From a virus (Duplodnaviria; Heunggongvirae; Uroviricota; Caudoviricetes): a DNA stretch of 23,521 nucleotides. The notes beneath the pieces were generated by a model that was given only the letters and a program-made list of their open reading frames with translations, ran no database searches and was not told the origin of the DNA. Made by a program: the position numbers and the translations under genes. This document shows positions 1 to 7,502 of the stretch, piece after piece. The stretch is from the IMG/VR virus record IMGVR_UViG_2529293249_000013, positions 1 to 23,521 of that record; one strand, written 5' to 3'. The stretch's first letter is position 1. Each line of letters begins with the position of its first letter.

Positions 1-1158
1 ATGCTCACCGTTAAGCAGATTGAAGCAGCAAAGCCGAAAGAAAAACCATACCGCCTTCTCGATGGTAATGGCCTGTACCTTTATGTCCCTGTATCAGGGA
101 AAAAGGTATGGCAGCTTCGCTACAAGATTGACGGTAAGGAAAAAATACTGACCGTAGGAAAATATCCGCTAATGACTTTGCAGGAGGCAAGGGATAAAGC
201 ATGGACTGCGAGGAAAGACATCTCGGTTGGCATCGATCCGGTAAAGGCGAAAAAGGCTTCGTCTAACAACAATTCCTTTAGTGCGATTTACAAGGAATGG
301 TACGAGCACAAGAAGCAAGTCTGGTCAGTAGGCTATGCAAACGAACTTGCCAAAATGTTTGATGACGACATTTTACCCATCATCGGCGGTCTTGAGATTC
401 AGGATATTGAGCCGATGCAACTGTTGGAAGTAATCCGCAGATTTGAAGATCGCGGTGCAATGGAGCGAGCAAATAAAGCCCGCAGAAGATGCGGCGAGGT
501 TTTCCGTTACGCTATTGTCACTGGTAGGGCTAAATATAACCCGGCACCTGACCTTGCTGACGCCATGAAGGGATACCGCAAGAAGAACTTCCCGTTTCTT
601 CCTGCAGACCAGATCCCTGCATTCAACAAAGCACTGGCAACATTTTCAGGAAGCATCGTATCGCTCATTGCGACTAAAGTTTTGCGCTACACAGCCCTAA
701 GAACGAAAGAGCTTCGTTCCATGCTATGGAAGAACGTCGATTTTGAAAACAGGATTATCACCATCGACGCCAGTGTGATGAAGGGACGCAAAATTCATGT
801 GGTCCCGATGTCAGACCAGGTGGTTGAACTTCTCACTACGCTAAGCTCCATCACCAAACCAGTATCAGAGTTTGTTTTTGCCGGGCGCAACGATAAGAAG
901 AAGCCAATCTGCGAGAACGCGGTTCTACTTGTGATCAAACAAATCGGCTATGAGGGTCTGGAAAGCGGTCACGGATTCAGGCATGAATTCAGCACGATTA
1001 TGAACGAGCACGAATGGCCTGCTGACGCTATTGAAGTGCAACTGGCACATGCCAACGGCGGATCTGTGCGTGGAATTTACAACCATGCTCAGTATCTCGA
1101 TAAGCGCAGAGAAATGATGCAGTGGTGGGCGGACTGGATTGATGAAAAGGTGGGCTAA
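1..1158 (+). CDS. int: Tyrosine integrase, P4/Sf6-type (N-terminal arm-binding domain plus catalytic domain); may be complete or clipped by a few codons at the window edge
   Basis: 385-aa ORF starting at base 1. N-terminus MLTVKQIEAAKPKEKPYRLLDGNGLYLYV is typical of P4-family integrase arm-binding domains; C-terminal catalytic motifs HGFRHEFST and RGIYNHAQY (tyrosine nucleophile) are present. Family assignment from recalled motifs, not a search. Confidence 0.9.
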   Translation: MLTVKQIEAAKPKEKPYRLLDGNGLYLYVPVSGKKVWQLRYKIDGKEKILTVGKYPLMTLQEARDKAWTARKDISVGIDPVKAKKASSNNNSFSAIYKEWYEHKKQVWSVGYANELAKMFDDDILPIIGGLEIQDIEPMQLLEVIRRFEDRGAMERANKARRRCGEVFRYAIVTGRAKYNPAPDLADAMKGYRKKNFPFLPADQIPAFNKALATFSGSIVSLIATKVLRYTALRTKELRSMLWKNVDFENRIITIDASVMKGRKIHVVPMSDQVVELLTTLSSITKPVSEFVFAGRNDKKKPICENAVLLVIKQIGYEGLESGHGFRHEFSTIMNEHEWPADAIEVQLAHANGGSVRGIYNHAQYLDKRREMMQWWADWIDEKVG

Positions 1159-1265
1159 CCAACGCTATATCTCTGACAGCACTAAGCCTTGCAATCCAGT
1201 GCAAAGCTTTGTGTGTATAAGTTTTGTCTCATCAACCACAGTAAGTGTGTTTAATATGCTAACCG

Positions 1266-1292
1266 TTGACAATTACGCATAATAAATATAAA
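1266..1292 (+). promoter_or_regulatory. Putative sigma70-type promoter upstream of the acetyltransferase gene
   Basis: Perfect -35 TTGACA at 1266-1271, then a 15-nt spacer and TATAAA at 1287-1292, in an AT-rich intergenic region. Sequence pattern only. Confidence 0.25.
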
Positions 1293-1445
1293 AAATACTC
1301 ACAGCAATTAAACGCAACTAATAGTTACGCAAGAGATTATTTAGTTACATTTAGGCTATACACCAAACTATTAGCTTAAATCAATATGTTTTAATTATAT
1401 TTCGATTTATGTGAACCATGTCACATTTTCAACGGAGCGAATATA

Positions 1446-2033
1446 GTGAATATTTTTAGGTCTTTTAAAGAAAGGTTAATCCCTATTGTTTATCTTTCAT
1501 GCATAAAAAGAACCGCAGACATTACAGTTGGGAAAAATGTCAAATTTAGGGGTGTCCCTGACTTATCAATAGGAAAAGGCTGTTCATTGATAATAGGAGA
1601 TGGTTCATTTATAAACTCATCAAACAAATACTATCATGTAAATATGTTTTCCCCAGTTAAAATATTTGCTGAAAGGGAAGGAACTATTATTTCGATAGGT
1701 AAAAACACAAGAATACATGGGGCATGCTTACATGCCTATAATAAAATATCAATTGGAGATAGATGTCTGATAGCAGCGAATGTACAGATAATTGATTGCA
1801 ACGGTCACGAAAGTTCATTTGAAAATGTGGAAAATAGAATCAATACTTCGAGCGATGGGGTCCCAGTTATTATTGAAGATGATGTGTGGATAGGTACAGG
1901 CTCCATCATTTTGCCTGGAGTAACCATTGGTAGGGGATCAATCATAGCTGCCGGTAGCGTGGTTGTAAAAAGCATACCGCCAATGTGTATAGCTGGGGGA
2001 AACCCAGCTAAAGTTATAAAAATGGCGGACTAA
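1446..2033 (+). CDS. Hexapeptide-repeat (left-handed beta-helix) acetyltransferase, WbbJ/NeuO-like; candidate O-antigen or capsule O-acetyltransferase (lysogenic conversion)
   Basis: 195-aa ORF with GTG start at 1446 and ACGGAG about 10 nt upstream. Hexapeptide repeats visible (IGKNTRIHGACLHAYNKISIGDRCLIAANVQI; VWIGTGSIILPGVTIGRGSIIAAGSVVVKSI). GC about 30-35 percent versus about 47 percent in the late genes. Sits between integrase and tailspike, as oac does in Sf6 and neuO in CUS-3. Confidence 0.8.
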   Translation: MNIFRSFKERLIPIVYLSCIKRTADITVGKNVKFRGVPDLSIGKGCSLIIGDGSFINSSNKYYHVNMFSPVKIFAEREGTIISIGKNTRIHGACLHAYNKISIGDRCLIAANVQIIDCNGHESSFENVENRINTSSDGVPVIIEDDVWIGTGSIILPGVTIGRGSIIAAGSVVVKSIPPMCIAGGNPAKVIKMAD

Positions 2034-2046
2034 GTCCGCCTGTTCA
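2021..2046. terminator. Bidirectional hairpin terminator between convergent acetyltransferase and tailspike genes
   Basis: Perfect inverted repeat GGCGGAC-TAA-GTCCGCC (2024-2040) with the acetyltransferase stop codon in the loop. On the minus strand the hairpin is followed by CATTTTTAT. Confidence 0.5.
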
Positions 2047-4470
2047 TGATTGATAAACACCACTATTTACATAGTTAGCCTGAATTCGTGTACGGAATGT
2101 TGAATCAGCAATCTGATATGAATTTAACTGAACAGGAATAGCGCATCCGGAATATTTACCAGTAGCACTATTACCAGACTCATACTCACCAAATAGCAGT
2201 CCTATGGTTGTAATAGATGTCTCCGCAACTCCTGTGATTGTAGACAACCATCCAAATACACAACTTGTAAAATCAAATATACCTGTTCGTTTTCCACCAC
2301 TACTGTTCCAACCCAATCCATAGATTCGACAGTTGTTAAAGTAAATTCTGTTGTATGAACCGGAGGTGCGGGGAAGCGCTCCATCAATATATCCCATCGC
2401 CATATCTTGATTTGAAACACGCACCGTCATGTTACCCCATGCATTGATATAAGGAACGCAGTTGTAACTGTTATCAATAGTCACATCCTGTGGAACATCA
2501 TAGGAAGTAAACATGAATGTTTGTACGTTATAGCGAGGGTTGGATGGCGAAGTGGTTTTCCCAAGACGAGCAAGGTCTACATCCTTCACTGTGAGCTTAT
2601 ATTTTTCTCTGCCTACGATAGTTGAAAGCTGAGCATCTGTTAGGCTTGAGTAGTTCCTTTGGTTGTAGACAACGCTGACGGATAAAGTGGAATCATAAGA
2701 ACGTGTCCCTACAACCTTTACATTTTCAATGTAATGGCTGTTTGGCAGAATCATATATTGCTCATAATTATTTTTGCTTGACACGCCGAGATCCAATATT
2801 CTAAGTTCCAGAAGTCCAGAGGCATTAGTCAGATCAAGAGACACGTCCTTTATCACTACATCCGGGCTTGTGGCGATATAATTACCATTATATTTTGGTT
2901 CAAGACTGCTTACCAAGAAATAACCTTCACACGTAGACGGTAACGTGACTCGTAAACCTTCAACTCGAATCTCGCCATCCCATGATGACATGTAATCTCG
3001 CTTCACAGAGAAAAATTCAAGAGTTTTTTTCCCGTACATGCCGAGGTGCTTGCATTTAGTGGCCACCCATTCTCCCCAACCTTGCGCCGCACAATGATAA
3101 CGAACTGTCGATTCATTGAGATAAATGTCAGACATACTGAAGTGACCGCCAACGCCAGGTAAGTCGCATCGATTAATATGTATATTTCGTGATTTATTAC
3201 CATCAAAGCCGCTCCACCCATTGATGCAGCAGCAATTATCCATTGTTACATCAGAACATTTTTCAGTGAGGATAAAATAGGCTGCCTCATTTCTTCCCGC
3301 GGGGATGGAAGGTGCAGTACCATCAAGATATCCAACAGGACTCATGTATAGGTTATTAACATAAACTCTTGAGCATCGTTGGAAGTTTACTACCTGCCTT
3401 GTGCAACCATTATTTATTACCTCAACTGTATTTCCATGTATTATAGTATTATTCCTTGAGCAAAGAACAACATTATTGATTCTTGCCCCATCCAAAACAA
3501 CCTTTGGCATTTTAAAATACAGGTTATTTGTAAAAGGTTTATATTTTATAACAGGTCGATCTTTATAGGTATAATAGTTCCGATAACGCAAGTTACCGTC
3601 AGCGTCAATCTCGTGAACTTCTGTTTTTAGCTGGTCTGATAAAGTACCACCATTATTTCTCACCATCACAACATCTTTAGAATCAAGAATAATAGTTCCC
3701 TGTAATCCATTAACAGGGAAGCTCACCTGCCCTTTCATGTAGCTTACTGCGGAAAACATTTCAGTGACATCATTTTCATCCTGAGAGATTTCAAATAGTG
3801 TCTTGTCCAAAGACCAGACATCTCCACCCTGATATGTAGAGCATGTCACTGTTGCATCACTCATATCTGAGCTAACTGTTATTTCAATAGGGTCTGTGGA
3901 ACTTGCCGTGAGAACATAATTCCCTGTAGCAACAACCGATTTTTTCAATATCTTTGCGTCTGCATACATTTTTTTAAACGCTAATGTATGATCCACCTCA
4001 TTCCCATCAAAATAGAGCTCTGGATACAGAAAAGGAAGACTCTTTAACTTATTTAACTCTTCCTGAACAGTAGTGCCAGTTGCCGTCCCTATTATTGATG
4101 CGCCCCCATTACTTTCAATTTGCTGACGCAATTGGTCGGGGTCATACTTCAGCACATTCGGAAAATAGAACTGCTGCGCACCATACGCATCATAAACAGC
4201 CATAGAATGGCCTTGCACAGTTACGAACTTGGCAATCTGTCCGTTATATACCGGATATCCAGCAGCGTTAATGATGATTGGTTGCGAAACAGGAACGTGA
4301 GAACCGTCTTCGTTCTCCACATAAACCTGAATCTGGTTTTCAGGATTTACCGGGTCCGTGTCAATTTTACCGATATAGATTTTGCCATTGGCTACGGCTT
4401 TAAAAGAACGAGCCATAGTGAAGAGTTGCGAAGGCATGCTCACTACAACATTGGCTGTAATGTCTGTCAT
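2044..4470 (-). CDS. Tailspike protein: P22 gp9-type head-binding N-terminal domain fused to a divergent receptor-binding/depolymerase body
   Basis: 808-aa ORF. First ~115 aa ([11 protein letters not shown]...[21 protein letters not shown]...[13 protein letters not shown]...VLKYDPDQ) closely match the P22 tailspike head-binding domain as recalled; the rest is unrelated to P22 gp9 and AT-rich (~30-40 percent GC). RBS GGAG 9 nt upstream of ATG at 4470. Confidence 0.9.
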
Positions 4471-4602
4471 TTAATTTGCTCCAGATACAATGAATCGCCG
4501 CAGCATGGCTACGGTTGATGTTTGTTGCATACCGAAATGGTACGATTGTTGATTTGTACAGTAGGTTTTACGATGCCATTCCACCCATTTGGTGAGGCAT
4601 TG

Positions 4603-4860
4603 ATGATGTACAGCAAATACGATGAGGCGCAGTTCCACTTGAGGCTTACGCACGAGTTGCACGCTAAGATTAAGCAGCGTGCAAAAATGAATAACAGGTC
4701 TATCAATTCCGAAATTGTGGCTACGATGGAAGAATCACTCTCCAAACCATCACCTGTAAGCGGGTATCGTGATGAAGAAGAGAGGTTGGCCTCATTAATC
4801 TCGGAGCGAGTAAAAGAAGTTGCGGCTGATATCCTTAGAAAAGAAAAAACCCGCGATTAA
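4603..4860 (+). CDS. mnt: Mnt-like ribbon-helix-helix repressor (immI region)
   Basis: Six-frame ORF 4522-4860 trimmed to ATG at 4603, which has RBS GGTGAGG upstream. The 85-aa product has RHH motif NNRSINSEIVATMEESL and a C-terminal SKPSPVSGYRDEEERLA close to P22 Mnt (SKPSPVTGYRNDAERLA, from memory). Confidence 0.8.
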   Translation: MMYSKYDEAQFHLRLTHELHAKIKQRAKMNNRSINSEIVATMEESLSKPSPVSGYRDEEERLASLISERVKEVAADILRKEKTRD

Positions 4861-4869
4861 GCGGGTTTA
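4843..4869. terminator. Bidirectional rho-independent terminator between convergent mnt and the 73-aa ORF
   Basis: AAAAAA-CCCGC-gattaa-GCGGG-TTT: 5-bp GC stem flanked by an A-run and a T-run; the mnt stop codon lies in the loop. Confidence 0.6.
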
Positions 4870-4874
4870 GTTGG

Positions 4875-5096
4875 TTAGTTATCAAAAAGTCCGTACGTTT
4901 CTTCTTCTTCAGGTGTAAGGGGAAGAATCTCTACTCTATCTATAGATATCTTTTCAATGTACCCATGAGGTCTACTTAAAATTAAAGCTCTCTCATGCCA
5001 CAGAACTCCAAGAATGTGATACCTTCCAGCATCGCCTTTTACCCTGGCTCTTCCTTTGATTCTTGGCGGCATAATGCCATATTTTTTCTTTGCCAT
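4875..5096 (-). CDS. Hypothetical 73-aa protein, translationally coupled to the upstream KilAC-domain gene
   Basis: Its ATG overlaps the stop of the upstream gene (TAATG). Basic N-terminus MAKKKYGIMPPRIKGRARVKG. No family recognised. Confidence 0.45.
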   Translation of the reverse strand: MAKKKYGIMPPRIKGRARVKGDAGRYHILGVLWHERALILSRPHGYIEKISIDRVEILPLTPEEEETYGLFDN

Positions 5097-5824
5097 TATG
5101 CAACATTACTCCCATGAATCAGGTGTTGTAGTGCTTTAACACCTTCCTCATTGTAGCGGAATGCTTCCACCTGTTTGCTGGAATGCGCAGATTTATCCAG
5201 GAAGAACTTCCCGTACTGCTCAGTTTTGAGGTTGTTTGCGTTAGCAATGCGACCAATCTTGTTGGCCGTTACCCCAAGCTGCTCTGCAACCTCCCCTGCT
5301 GAGTAGTAATGCTCTTCTATTGCTGGAAGAGGTATTGCATTAAAACCAACGATCGGGTTGATTATGCTTGCTGCCGCAGTCTGCTTTGCTTCCGGCGCAA
5401 GATTTGGCATCAAATCGAACAGATTGGTAACAGCTTCAACCGTCATTTTCAATGTTCGCGCCTGGCGATACTCAACAAGTCCACTAGACGATTTACCGCT
5501 TTTAATGTGCGCTTCTTGCATACTTTCAAGTTGGTCTACAAGTGAGCGGCGAACAGCTTTAGATTCACGAGCAGCCACTCGAAGGGCTTGCTTAATTGAC
5601 ATAACAACTTTTTCAGAAGTTGTCTTGTTTGATTTTTGAACTACGAAAATTTCGTAGTGCTCACCTTCAAGTTCATCCTTAATGCGTGCAATAAAGTCGT
5701 TATTGCGGACTTCTTTTTCCCCGCACTGTCTACGAGCATGATTGACCATCTCTAACAGGTACTGGCTATCAATGGTTTTATCCGTGACAACGGATCCGAT
5801 GTTTGCTACATTCTTAAAAGTCAT
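5096..5824 (-). CDS. Phage antirepressor/regulatory protein with KilAC-like C-terminal domain
   Basis: Six-frame ORF 5096-5875 trimmed to ATG at 5824 (MTFKNVANIG...) with RBS AAGGAA 8 nt upstream. N-terminus TIDSQYLLEMVNHARRQCGEKEVRNNDFIARIKDEL resembles phage antirepressor N-domains; C-terminus (YSAGEVAEQLGVTANKIGRIANANNL...) looks like a KilAC domain. Assignment from memory, moderate. Confidence 0.6.
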   Translation of the reverse strand: MTFKNVANIGSVVTDKTIDSQYLLEMVNHARRQCGEKEVRNNDFIARIKDELEGEHYEIFVVQKSNKTTSEKVVMSIKQALRVAARESKAVRRSLVDQLESMQEAHIKSGKSSSGLVEYRQARTLKMTVEAVTNLFDLMPNLAPEAKQTAAASIINPIVGFNAIPLPAIEEHYYSAGEVAEQLGVTANKIGRIANANNLKTEQYGKFFLDKSAHSSKQVEAFRYNEEGVKALQHLIHGSNVA

Positions 5825-5912
5825 TAGGCATTCCTTATGTGGTAGTAAGGGTGTGACATAGGCCGCCAGCAGCACACTGGCGGTTTTCTTTTTGCGCCGT
5901 CCGGCGCACCAA

Positions 5913-6539
5913 TCAATGAATCCATTCCTCGCCGCGCAGTTTTGCCAGCATTGGCTGAGCGTTCTTTACGACAAAATTGTTGGTATCAAGATTCTTCATT
6001 TCACGAAGAAGTGATTTCTTGGTTTCTTCTGACATGTAGCGAGTCTCATATGCAATATCGTAAATCCTTCCTGAAAGCTCAGAACCAATTTGCTTCATTC
6101 CTGGGTAGATGTGTTTGCACATTTGTTGACTCTTCTCCATCCACAATTGTAAGTAGCAGAGATTAACCAGTTCTTCGTCAGTAAACTGTTTTGCAATCGG
6201 TGAGCATTCTGCCTGCCGATCCAAAATATCCAGCACCCAGCGGCGGAACTCTTTGGCTACCTGAGTGCGAGCAAACATCGCGATTAGGTGGGCACCGCGT
6301 AGTGAGAAAACACGCACTTTTTTGCGATAATTTCCTGAGGTACTCACTTCGAGTACCTGAGTCATTCCGGCGCTAAACTCATCGCTATACTTGTTATAAA
6401 TCATTGTTACTGCACGACTATTTGCGTATTTAAGTGCAGATGCAATATTAGATGATGTAAACCAAACACCATGCATATCACGGGTGGGCACCAATTCAAC
6501 TCCGTGGAAGTTATAATCTGATTTTGCTACAATATTCAT
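5913..6539 (-). CDS. Bro-N-type antirepressor-like protein (ant analogue downstream of arc)
   Basis: Bro-N-like motif YNFHGVELVPTRDMHGVWFTSSNIASALKYANSRAV...RVFSLRGAHLIAMFARTQVAKEFRRWVLDIL. Start set at ATG 6539 (MNIVAK..., RBS AAGGAAA). An upstream in-frame ATG at 6623 also has a plausible RBS and would overlap the arc stop. Confidence 0.7.
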   Translation of the reverse strand: MNIVAKSDYNFHGVELVPTRDMHGVWFTSSNIASALKYANSRAVTMIYNKYSDEFSAGMTQVLEVSTSGNYRKKVRVFSLRGAHLIAMFARTQVAKEFRRWVLDILDRQAECSPIAKQFTDEELVNLCYLQLWMEKSQQMCKHIYPGMKQIGSELSGRIYDIAYETRYMSEETKKSLLREMKNLDTNNFVVKNAQPMLAKLRGEEWIH

Positions 6540-6608
6540 GTTAGTTTCCTTGCATACGGTTACTGACATAGAGGCCCGGTTTGTGTTCACGCACTGCCGG
6601 GCTTCACT
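6525..6608 (+). ncRNA. Possible sar-like small antisense RNA, complementary to the ant-analogue RBS and start codon
   Basis: Plus-strand consensus -10 TATAAT at 6512-6517 (weak -35). Downstream, a hairpin GAGGCCCGG-17 nt loop-CCGGGCTTC (6571-6605) is followed by ACTATTTTTACT. The predicted ~80-nt transcript would be antisense to the RBS/ATG at 6539-6552. P22 has a sar RNA in the equivalent arc-ant interval. Confidence 0.25.
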
Positions 6609-6612
6609 ATTT

Positions 6613-6786
6613 TTACTGGGCATTAGCTCTTTCCTCTCTCAGGCTTTTAGCCAGTCGCTGCACAATCGCAGAGTTGATAGAAATTCCATCCATTTCAGCA
6701 ACACGTCTAATCTCCTCCTTCATTCGCGCTGGCAAACGAAGCTGGAAACTTTGACTTTTACGACCTGTGTAAAGCACATCTTTCAT
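6613..6786 (-). CDS. arc: Arc-like ribbon-helix-helix repressor
   Basis: Six-frame ORF 6613-6801 trimmed to ATG at 6786 with RBS GGGAGGA. The 57-aa product has RHH motif SFQLRLPARMKEEIRRVAEMDGISINSAIVQRL, resembling P22 Arc (QFNLRWPREVLDLVRKVAEENGRSVNSEIYQRV, from memory). First gene of an arc-ant-like operon. Confidence 0.75.
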   Translation of the reverse strand: MKDVLYTGRKSQSFQLRLPARMKEEIRRVAEMDGISINSAIVQRLAKSLREERANAQ

Positions 6787-6897
6787 AAGTAATCCTCCCA
6801 CAATGATACCAACTTGGTTCTAGAACCAATTTAACACCATTTATTTTGATGTCAAGTTGGTGCTATTGTTTAGCGAACATCTTTACGTTGAGGTCAT
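6787..6897. promoter_or_regulatory. Divergent promoter/operator region between arc-like (minus) and second mnt-like (plus) genes
   Basis: Perfect 16-bp palindrome TTGGTTCTAGAACCAA (6814-6829), flanked by 9-bp inverted repeats ACCAACTTG (6808-6816) and CAAGTTGGT (6853-6861). Minus-strand promoter: -35 TTGACA (6850-6855), 16-nt spacer, -10 TAAATT (6828-6833); the palindrome covers the -10 and predicted start site. Confidence 0.6.
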
Positions 6898-7218
6898 ATG
6901 AGCAAGTTCCCTAGTCATGAAATGGATAGGTTCAATATCAGGCTTCCTGCAGGAATGCGGGATGCTATAGCTGAACGAGCCAAACGTAACGGCAGATCAA
7001 TGAACTCAGAGATTGTTCAGATACTGGAAGATGCCTTGAATGCAGAAAATACACTCGGGGAAATAGCAGATAAAATCAACAGCGTCTCGGTTCCGCTAAA
7101 TGTTGATGCGCTAGTTCAACTTCAAGCCCAGGTTATCGCCATGCAAAAAGAAATACAGGAAAAGTTCAGAGAGCAGAACGAAAAGTTGAGAGAACTGCTA
7201 AACAAAAAAACCACCTGA
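6898..7218 (+). CDS. Second Mnt-like RHH repressor (N-terminal RHH plus C-terminal coiled coil)
   Basis: 106-aa ORF. RHH motif FNIRLPAGMRDAIAERAKRNGRSMNSEIVQILEDAL, then a heptad-rich C-terminus (LVQLQAQVIAMQKEIQEKFREQNEKLRELL). Divergent from the arc-like gene, in the position P22 mnt occupies. Confidence 0.7.
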   Translation: MSKFPSHEMDRFNIRLPAGMRDAIAERAKRNGRSMNSEIVQILEDALNAENTLGEIADKINSVSVPLNVDALVQLQAQVIAMQKEIQEKFREQNEKLRELLNKKTT

Positions 7219-7240
7219 CGGTGGGTTAATTTTTGCCTTT
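7204..7240. terminator. Putative terminator after the second mnt-like gene
   Basis: AAAAAAA-CCACC-tgac-GGTGG followed by GTTAATTTTTGCCTTTTTT. Short stem. Confidence 0.4.
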
Positions 7241-7316
7241 TTTGGACCATATTGACTACTCATAAAATGAGATCAATATTTAATCGCCCAATAACGGGTG
7301 CATGTTGAGGTATATC

Positions 7317-7496
7317 ATGGCGAAAAAACCAGGTGAAAACACAGGAAAAAACGGCGGAATATACCAAGAAGTTGGCCCGCGCGGAGGTAAGAAAGACAAT
7401 TTTGCCACCGTCAAGGACAACGAAAGGCTTCCGCCAACAACAAAGCCAGGTCATGGCTGGGTATTAGATAAGCGAACTCCAGACAGCAAAAAGTAA
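7317..7496 (+). CDS. Small conserved hypothetical protein, YjzC-like (59 aa)
   Basis: Six-frame ORF 7302-7496 trimmed to ATG 7317 (RBS GAGG about 8 nt upstream). KPGENTGKNGGIYQEVGPRGG...RLPPTTKPGHGW resembles the YjzC-like small protein family as recalled. Upstream TTGACT at 7252-7257 and an inverted repeat CTCAT-AAA-ATGAG could be a promoter/operator. Confidence 0.5.
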   Translation: MAKKPGENTGKNGGIYQEVGPRGGKKDNFATVKDNERLPPTTKPGHGWVLDKRTPDSKK

Positions 7497-7502
7497 TAAT
7501 CA

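Follow-up and report, generated by a model that had tools for sequence, protein, structure and literature searches.

Which surface polysaccharide, if any, is modified by the acetyltransferase that a P22-like prophage carries between its integrase and tailspike genes? The question is raised by the 23,521-nucleotide stretch of viral DNA analysed here (the window), which comprises positions 1 to 23,521 of IMG/VR record IMGVR_UViG_2529293249_000013. At positions 1446-2033 of its plus strand, the ORF call on the window gave an open reading frame (ORF) for a protein of 195 amino acids, which starts with GTG and has its stop codon at 2031-2033. RefSeq labels the identical ORF 'acyltransferase' (WP_001020284.1) in a chromosome whose match to the window is 100%; a literature search for the accession WP_001020284 found no paper mentioning it. 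A first-pass annotation, made from the DNA alone, had described the product as a left-handed beta-helix acetyltransferase that may modify the O-antigen or capsule recognised by the phage. The enzyme class is borne out by our analysis, and the target can be refined: based on host association and on collinearity with a gene cluster of Siccibacter, it is reasonably probable that the enzyme O-acetylates an O46/O134-type O-unit in the cytoplasm and thus converts the serotype of the lysogen.

Fold and family of the acetyltransferase

In a Pfam search, the protein matched Hexapep with an E-value of 3.8e-14 (52.1 bits, cut-off 27) and Hexapep_2 with 42 bits (cut-off 27). The AlphaFold2 model, which was calculated for the monomer with 57 homologs, is a beta-helix with short, regularly spaced strands; its mean pLDDT is 95.3 and its pTM is 0.90. 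A comparison of this model with the PDB by means of Foldseek identified NeuO (3jqy) as the best match, followed by VCA0836, Maa, LacA, and OatWY. The top matches are all left-handed beta-helix (LbH) acetyltransferases and have a probability of 1.00. A sequence search of the PDB ranked Maa first (2e-18), and NeuO was found with 1e-17. The residues H121 and W148 are invariant across the 57 homologs. H121 aligns with the His of the segment 'sdgh' of NeuO 3jqy and W148 with the Trp of the segment 'yvwvg', and this His and Trp we take to be the catalytic pair in NeuO and OatWY.

The first-pass annotation had further distinguished the protein from membrane acyltransferases such as Oac of phage Sf6, and this distinction holds. 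The Pfam search of the protein yielded no Acyl_transf_3 domain, and no transmembrane helix was detected: the maximum Kyte-Doolittle mean over 19 residues is 1.63 and lies within the beta-helix sequence. Judged by its sequence and modelled fold, the protein is a soluble hexapeptide-repeat O-acetyltransferase of the group that includes NeuO, Maa, LacA, and WbbJ, and not an Oac-type membrane enzyme. It is predicted to use acetyl-CoA and probably works as a trimer.

Within this group, the best NCBIfam models were WbbJ, LacA, Maa, and WcaF, all of which scored far below their curated cut-offs. The WbbJ equivalog model (NF007240) reached 74.1 bits compared to a cut-off of 243, and the match was limited to residues 84-194. 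The corresponding scores and cut-offs were 66.3 and 347 bits for LacA, 64.7 and 314 for Maa, 58.3 and 300 for Vat, and 55.8 and 350 for CatB. By these curated cut-offs, the protein is not an equivalog of WbbJ, Maa, LacA, Vat, or CatB. A homolog search resulted in more than 7000 matches, many of them at 55-68% identity, and the protein belongs to an unnamed subfamily.

Genomic settings of the homologs

The genomic settings of five chromosomal homologs were examined, and all five are O-antigen or polysaccharide clusters. The closest of these homologs, from Siccibacter colletis, is 68% identical over the full length. Its gene is the last one before gnd and follows a GT2 gene in a galF-gnd wzx/wzy cluster, and no polymannan genes were found nearby. 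In Enterobacter hormaechei, the gene for a homolog with 59% identity is part of a ugd-acetyltransferase-ATP-grasp-wzx arrangement beside wzz-his; in Scandinavium, the gene is located between ugd and the ATP-grasp/wzx pair, again beside wzz-his. The Cronobacter turicensis gene is the final one before gnd, and the fifth homolog is encoded inside an ABC-transporter (Wzt-type) cluster. The link to polysaccharides that had been proposed earlier is in agreement with these settings; detoxifying enzymes were not the best homologs.

The gene order of the Siccibacter cluster is collinear with that of the O46/O134 cluster of E. coli, which has six genes; the acetyltransferase gene is an extra seventh and last gene in Siccibacter. 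In E. coli DETEC-E601, which is identical to the window at 100%, the six genes between galF and gnd code for an ATP-grasp amidoligase, Wzx, a GT2 enzyme, Wzy, a beta-1,6-GlcNAc transferase, and a further GT2 enzyme. The identities between the Siccibacter and O46/O134 proteins are as follows.

ATP-grasp: 62%
Wzx: 50%
GT2 (first): 49%
Wzy: 41%
Branch-type glycosyltransferase: 60%
GT2 (second): 53%

The identity of 68% between the phage and the Siccibacter acetyltransferase exceeds that of each of the six shared cluster proteins.

A TupA-like ATP-grasp amidoligase accompanies the homolog in Siccibacter, E. hormaechei, and Scandinavium, and the two genes are adjacent in the last two. As a general rule this pairing fails, because C. 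turicensis is without an amidoligase, and no inference on the acceptor was drawn from it. On a short contig from a metagenome, a gene for a membrane Acyl_transf_3 protein (Oac/OafA-type) is followed, after about 400 bp, by the gene for a homolog with 80% identity; the two may form a two-acetyltransferase module. Near-identical DNA is absent from 50,697 phage records, and IMG/VR contains no close relative of the protein, the best match being 48% over half of its length. The Kapi1 gene product hyp24, annotated as 'acyltransferase-like' and encoded between tailspike and int, was rejected as a counterpart, since it is a 34-residue ORF unrelated to the acetyltransferase.

Carrier strains and the neighbouring tailspike

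The acetyltransferase gene was found in seven of 5426 complete E. coli genomes, and more than 1000 blocks of an assembly collection contain it. In every context read, it adjoins the same tailspike family. The O46/O134-family wzx/wzy cluster is present in 17 of the 5426 genomes and in five of the seven carriers, namely DETEC-E601, A28, TUM1887, 41, and FCI51. Fisher's test for this association gave p = 3.3e-12; here and in the tests below, genomes were treated as independent, with no correction for clonal relatedness.

The receptor-binding part of the tailspike (2044-4110, minus strand) occurs in nine of the 5426 genomes, which are the seven carriers plus NCTC11121 and NCTC9966. Seven of these nine have the O46/O134 cluster, including the two NCTC strains. 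NCTC11121 is without an O8/O9 cluster, its wzzB abutting hisIE, and the tailspike of its sister prophage is 85% identical at the protein level. A literature search did not find the serotypes of NCTC11121 and NCTC9966. Among deposited phages, the receptor-binding part has no close relative; the best tblastn match is a Vibrio phage protein at 27%. The acetyltransferase is 100% identical beside tailspikes whose identity ranges from 100% down to 79%, which suggests that the cassette either has spread recently or is under strong constraint.

DETEC-E601 has two polysaccharide clusters near his. The O46/O134 cluster is accompanied by a wzm/wzt cluster for O8 polymannan, which is flanked by wzz and his, and A28, TUM1887, 41, and FCI51 have the same pair. 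The two clusters occur together in at least eight genomes, and the in-silico typing of strains that have both would be ambiguous.

An exchangeable cassette between integrase and tailspike

The elements of the locus, with their positions in the window, are listed below.

1-1158, plus strand: IntS-type tyrosine integrase (Pfam Phage_integrase, Phage_int_M, Arm-DNA-bind_3), left flank of the slot
1159-1246, plus strand: conserved segment 3' of int, outside the cassette, common to other lambdoid/P22-like prophages
1247-2048, no strand assigned: exchangeable acetyltransferase cassette (moron) of 802 bp, consisting of an AT-rich leader, the acetyltransferase gene, and a terminator hairpin
1266-1292, plus strand: promoter-like TTGACA (1266-1271), 15 nt, and TATAAA (1287-1292), proposed in the first-pass annotation and present in the sequence
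1434-1437, plus strand: Shine-Dalgarno sequence GGAG, 8 nt 5' of the GTG start, as read from the sequence
2024-2040, minus strand: GC-rich hairpin GGCGGAC-TTA-GTCCGCC with a minus-strand T-run after it, the sole terminator-like site in 1100-2150
2044-4470, minus strand: tailspike of 808 residues with a P22 head-binding domain (Pfam Head_binding, residues 1-113) and a receptor-binding domain

The DNA homology with the sister prophage of NCTC11121 runs through int, stops at 1246, and restarts at 2049. The break at 1246/1247 and the resumption at 2048/2049 therefore delimit a cassette of 802 bp at 1247-2048. In exactly this interval, and with homologous flanks on both sides, the NCTC11121 prophage contains gtrA-gtrB-gtrC. 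Likewise, neuO of CUS-3 occupies the same interval between int and tailspike. These two occupants support the earlier proposal that the position is a slot for receptor-modifying genes. The guanine-plus-cytosine (GC) fraction of the cassette is 0.32-0.37 compared to 0.46 for the window. More precisely, it is 0.367 for the acetyltransferase gene and 0.324 for the upstream region 1159-1445, and in 300-nt windows across 1201-1800, it is 0.29-0.34; int has 0.477 and the full window 0.462. The low GC content noted in the first-pass annotation is thus correct in direction, but the value for the entire gene slightly exceeds the quoted 30-35%.

The integrase is annotated as intS in the 100%-identical host locus and lies directly downstream of a tRNA-Arg gene (argW). 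Given the integrated order of tRNA-Arg, int, acetyltransferase, and tailspike, attP must therefore be upstream of int, and a location within 1159-1445 was ruled out. No tRNA fragment was found in the window. Parts of the conserved segment 1159-1246, in matches covering at most its first 88 nt, occur in 717 of the 5426 E. coli genomes, among them K-12 strains (at about 1.4156 Mb); the segment also matches several lambdoid/P22-like phages. A hairpin within this segment is no more stable than those of shuffled sequences (z = -1.07).

For the transcription of the gene, the first-pass annotation had suggested the TTGACA-TATAAA element. Its letters are present, but the 15-nt spacer is non-canonical. 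The sigma-70 scan applied here demands a spacer of 16-18 nt and a -10 hexamer that ends in T, and the element, with a spacer outside this range, was not reported. In total, the scan of the region gave seven hits compared to 4.8 +/- 1.9 in shuffled sequences, which is not above chance. The hairpin at 2024-2040 is the terminator of the tailspike gene, because its T-run is on the minus strand. It overlaps the stop codon of the acetyltransferase gene and may also stop the transcription of the latter. By means of TRF, no heptanucleotide or other meaningful tandem repeat was detected within 1100-2100, in line with the earlier statement that a tract like that of neuO is missing; the output consisted only of an A-rich 9-nt x2 repeat at 1279-1297. 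An Rfam search of 1100-2100 found nothing, the single match (E = 0.24) being far below the gathering threshold.

The remaining window is a P22-like virion module with genes for coat, portal, and ejection proteins, a needle knob of the Sf6 type, and terminase. An ORF of 707 residues (8130-10253, minus strand) adjoins the gp20-like Inj_translocase gene, which is roughly the position of the gp16-type ejection protein in related prophages; it has no Pfam match at E <= 1e-5. As annotated by RefSeq and Pfam in the identical locus, an immI-like region at 4522-7700 contains several repressor genes of the Arc/Mnt family and an antirepressor gene (Bro-N/P22_AR_C). It separates the tailspike gene from the genes for ejection proteins, as in P22.

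Alternative targets and roles

The enzyme could instead acetylate the O8/O9 polymannan, which is polymerised in the cytoplasm before its export by Wzm/Wzt. An O8 or O9 polymannan cluster adjoins his in each of the seven carriers. The O8 cluster, which is present in 309 genomes, is found in six of the seven, and Fisher's test for the association of the acetyltransferase with O8 gave p = 2e-7. Moreover, NeuO, the best fold match in the PDB, is a precedent for a cytoplasmic enzyme that acts on an ABC-transporter-dependent polymer, in this case polysialic acid. As the first host examined was O8, this polymannan was the first candidate target; it was demoted by the O46/O134 cluster, the Siccibacter synteny, and NCTC11121. 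Among the approximately 300 O8 genomes without an O46/O134 cluster there is only one carrier, and its gene is in a remnant prophage, whereas the O8 genomes with an O46/O134 cluster, at least eight in number, include five carriers (p = 1.5e-8). Thus, even among O8 genomes the acetyltransferase tracks the O46/O134 cluster. A polymannan target is also at odds with the related tailspike in NCTC11121, a strain without an O8/O9 cluster, and with the Siccibacter wzx/wzy cluster, which contains the closest homolog and has no polymannan genes nearby. Furthermore, O8 and O9 differ in their repeat unit. The O46/O134 O-antigen is favoured over O8 because of the collinearity of the Siccibacter cluster and because of the O8-negative strain NCTC11121 with its related tailspike; acetylation of the polymannan is unlikely.

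Two other explanations were considered. The protein could be a detoxifier of a sugar or an antibiotic, of the Maa, LacA, Vat, or CatB type and unrelated to polysaccharides, or it could modify colanic acid, enterobacterial common antigen, or a capsule. The models of all four enzymes score significantly, albeit below threshold, and Maa is the top sequence match in the PDB. On the other hand, a LacA score of 66 versus 347 bits and a CatB score of 56 versus 350 bits are far under the curated cut-offs, the homologs with 55-68% identity that were examined are all encoded in O-antigen or polysaccharide clusters, sister phages use the slot for gtrABC and neuO, and the association with the O-antigen cluster of the host is strong. 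We therefore regard a role of this kind as very unlikely. Alternatively, the gene could be a passenger, which is silent or without a cognate substrate and is kept only by its linkage to the tailspike gene. The lack of a canonical promoter would fit this explanation, as would the persistence of the gene in at least one strain with an O160 cluster that has only a remnant of the prophage. It is opposed by the 100% identity of the protein in cases where the adjacent tailspike has diverged to 79-86% identity, by an ORF that is intact in the remnant prophage, by a good Shine-Dalgarno sequence and an own leader inside the cassette, and by the conserved residues H121 and W148, the counterparts of a His and a Trp in NeuO. 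A mere passenger is quite unlikely in view of these features.

Several observations also weigh against the acetylation of an O46/O134-type O-unit. All five carriers with the O46/O134 cluster have an O8 polymannan cluster as well, and because of this the genomes with the acetyltransferase cannot by themselves separate O46/O134 from O8; what tells the two apart is NCTC11121 in the case of the tailspike and the Siccibacter synteny in that of the acetyltransferase. With respect to the latter, enzymes that are 68% identical, as the phage and Siccibacter proteins are, need not share an acceptor. TUM12355 and WL164 are exceptions among the seven carriers, the former having O160 and O8 clusters and the latter O160 and O9 clusters. 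In TUM12355, the gene is part of a four-gene prophage remnant consisting of int, acetyltransferase, tailspike, and mnt; in WL164, the context read comprised the cassette and the tailspike. The same four-gene remnant is located at argW in strain 41, which has the O46/O134 cluster, and the O160 mismatch may have arisen when a lineage that had inherited the remnant later exchanged its O-antigen locus. Furthermore, the sigma-70 scan did not find a canonical promoter upstream of the gene. Finally, the strains 41 and A28 have two acetyltransferase-tailspike cassettes each, at different chromosomal sites. Both cassettes of strain 41 are intact; one belongs to the argW remnant, and the other lies at the end of a complete prophage beside ybhB/bioA. 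In A28, the argW copy has an altered C-terminus of the acetyltransferase (96% identity over 192 residues), and the second copy, near yagU/ykgJ, has a disrupted tailspike gene. These double cassettes are hard to reconcile with a strong exclusion of the cognate phage, and the superinfection immunity suggested in the first-pass annotation is doubtful. The cognate phage may not be kept out by the modification at all; otherwise, double lysogeny was made possible by the sequence of events or by the state of expression.

The four-gene remnant, in which bacterial genes follow the mnt-like repressor gene, recurs at argW in several isolates that look unrelated. In the argW remnant, both the acetyltransferase and the 808-residue tailspike are intact.

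Proposed mechanism and consequences

According to the O46/O134 assignment, the lysogen would express a cytoplasmic, acetyl-CoA-dependent, and probably trimeric LbH enzyme from the 802-bp moron cassette. The enzymes of this family that are encoded in O-antigen clusters must act on the lipid-linked unit at the inner face of the membrane, because they are soluble. During the assembly of the O46/O134-type repeat unit on undecaprenyl pyrophosphate, the O-acetyl group would be added at the cytoplasmic face, prior to flipping by Wzx. The modified polymer would then be displayed through the action of Wzx, Wzy, and WaaL. As a consequence, the O-antigen of the lysogen would be altered chemically and serologically, and the same polymer would be the target of the neighbouring tailspike family. 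For this scheme, we infer expression in the lysogen, an acceptor sugar and position, and effects on serology and on phage adsorption. The chance that the cognate phage is excluded is no better than even.

A further consequence would concern the serogroups themselves. The O46 and O134 clusters are 98-99.9% identical, yet there is no cross-reaction between the respective sera (PMC4732683). According to the title of Perepelov et al. 2015 (cited in PMC7685785), the two O-antigens are 'closely related' and both contain D-glucuronoyl-D-allothreonine. We found no open paper that states the chemical difference between O46 and O134 or that links them to a prophage gene. This difference may be an O-acetyl group, glucose, or both. 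That the acetyltransferase, alone or contrasted with gtrABC, is the determinant outside the cluster which splits near-identical O46/O134 clusters into two non-cross-reacting serogroups is a tentative idea, and we deem it possible rather than probable. If true, the prophage gene would provide both a genetic marker and a mechanism for the O46/O134 split, which in-silico O-typing cannot resolve. One slot with cassettes for the acetylation or glucosylation of a single O-antigen backbone, combined with tailspikes of 79-100% identity, would constitute a compact system of receptor/anti-receptor co-evolution.

Comparison with known systems

The closest phage-encoded counterpart in terms of fold is NeuO of CUS-3 from E. 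coli K1, which is likewise a soluble LbH acetyltransferase and the best fold match in the PDB (3jqy). The genetic setting is similar as well: neuO is located between a 97.7%-identical IntS integrase gene and the tailspike gene, and NeuO modifies the polymer that is targeted by the tailspike of its own phage. However, NeuO is only 37% identical over 68% of the protein (residues 60-192 only), and the chromosomal O-antigen enzymes are closer (55-68%). Moreover, neuO is encoded on the opposite strand, convergent with int, and contains a 5' AAGACTC heptanucleotide repeat of 19 copies that mediates phase variation, whereas no such repeat is present in the cassette studied here. The low identity and the inverted orientation argue for an independent acquisition of the two genes. 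The substrate of NeuO is an ABC-exported capsule; here it is most likely a Wzx/Wzy O-unit, and the precedent of NeuO would, if this is true, be extended from ABC-exported capsule to Wzx/Wzy O-antigen.

The enzymes from Siccibacter, Enterobacter, Scandinavium, and Cronobacter belong to the same subfamily as the phage protein, but they are chromosomal, encoded inside the cluster, and co-transcribed. In contrast, the phage copy is unlinked to the O-antigen cluster and has its own leader and terminator. WbbJ, the rhamnose O-acetyltransferase for the O16 antigen of E. coli K-12, is the top NCBIfam model and is also a soluble LbH enzyme for a Wzx/Wzy O-unit. As the score is far below the equivalog cut-off, the phage protein is no WbbJ ortholog.

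Sf6 Oac, as well as OacB/C/D and Oac of phiV10, resembles the enzyme in being encoded by a prophage moron for O-antigen O-acetylation near int and tailspike of a P22-like phage, and the outcome of Oac action in Sf6 is serotype conversion. It differs in that Oac is an integral-membrane Acyl_transf_3 enzyme with approximately 10 transmembrane helices. The protein studied here has neither this domain nor a hydrophobic segment; its expected site of action is therefore the cytoplasm, with the lipid-linked unit as its substrate. The gtrABC genes of P22 and of NCTC11121 share the slot and its homologous flanks, and the host NCTC11121 has the same O46/O134 cluster; their products, all three of them membrane proteins, transfer glucose in the periplasm via undecaprenyl phosphate-glucose, so that both the chemistry and the compartment differ. 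By analogy, the acetyltransferase may be grouped functionally with gtrABC, Sf6 oac, and CUS-3 neuO, the serotype-converting morons of P22-like phages. A gene of this class is expected at this position, which makes the finding useful rather than surprising. If it is indeed the determinant of the O46/O134 split, the enzyme would also be the first documented soluble LbH phage enzyme, as opposed to a membrane enzyme of the Oac type, that converts a Wzx/Wzy-dependent O-antigen.

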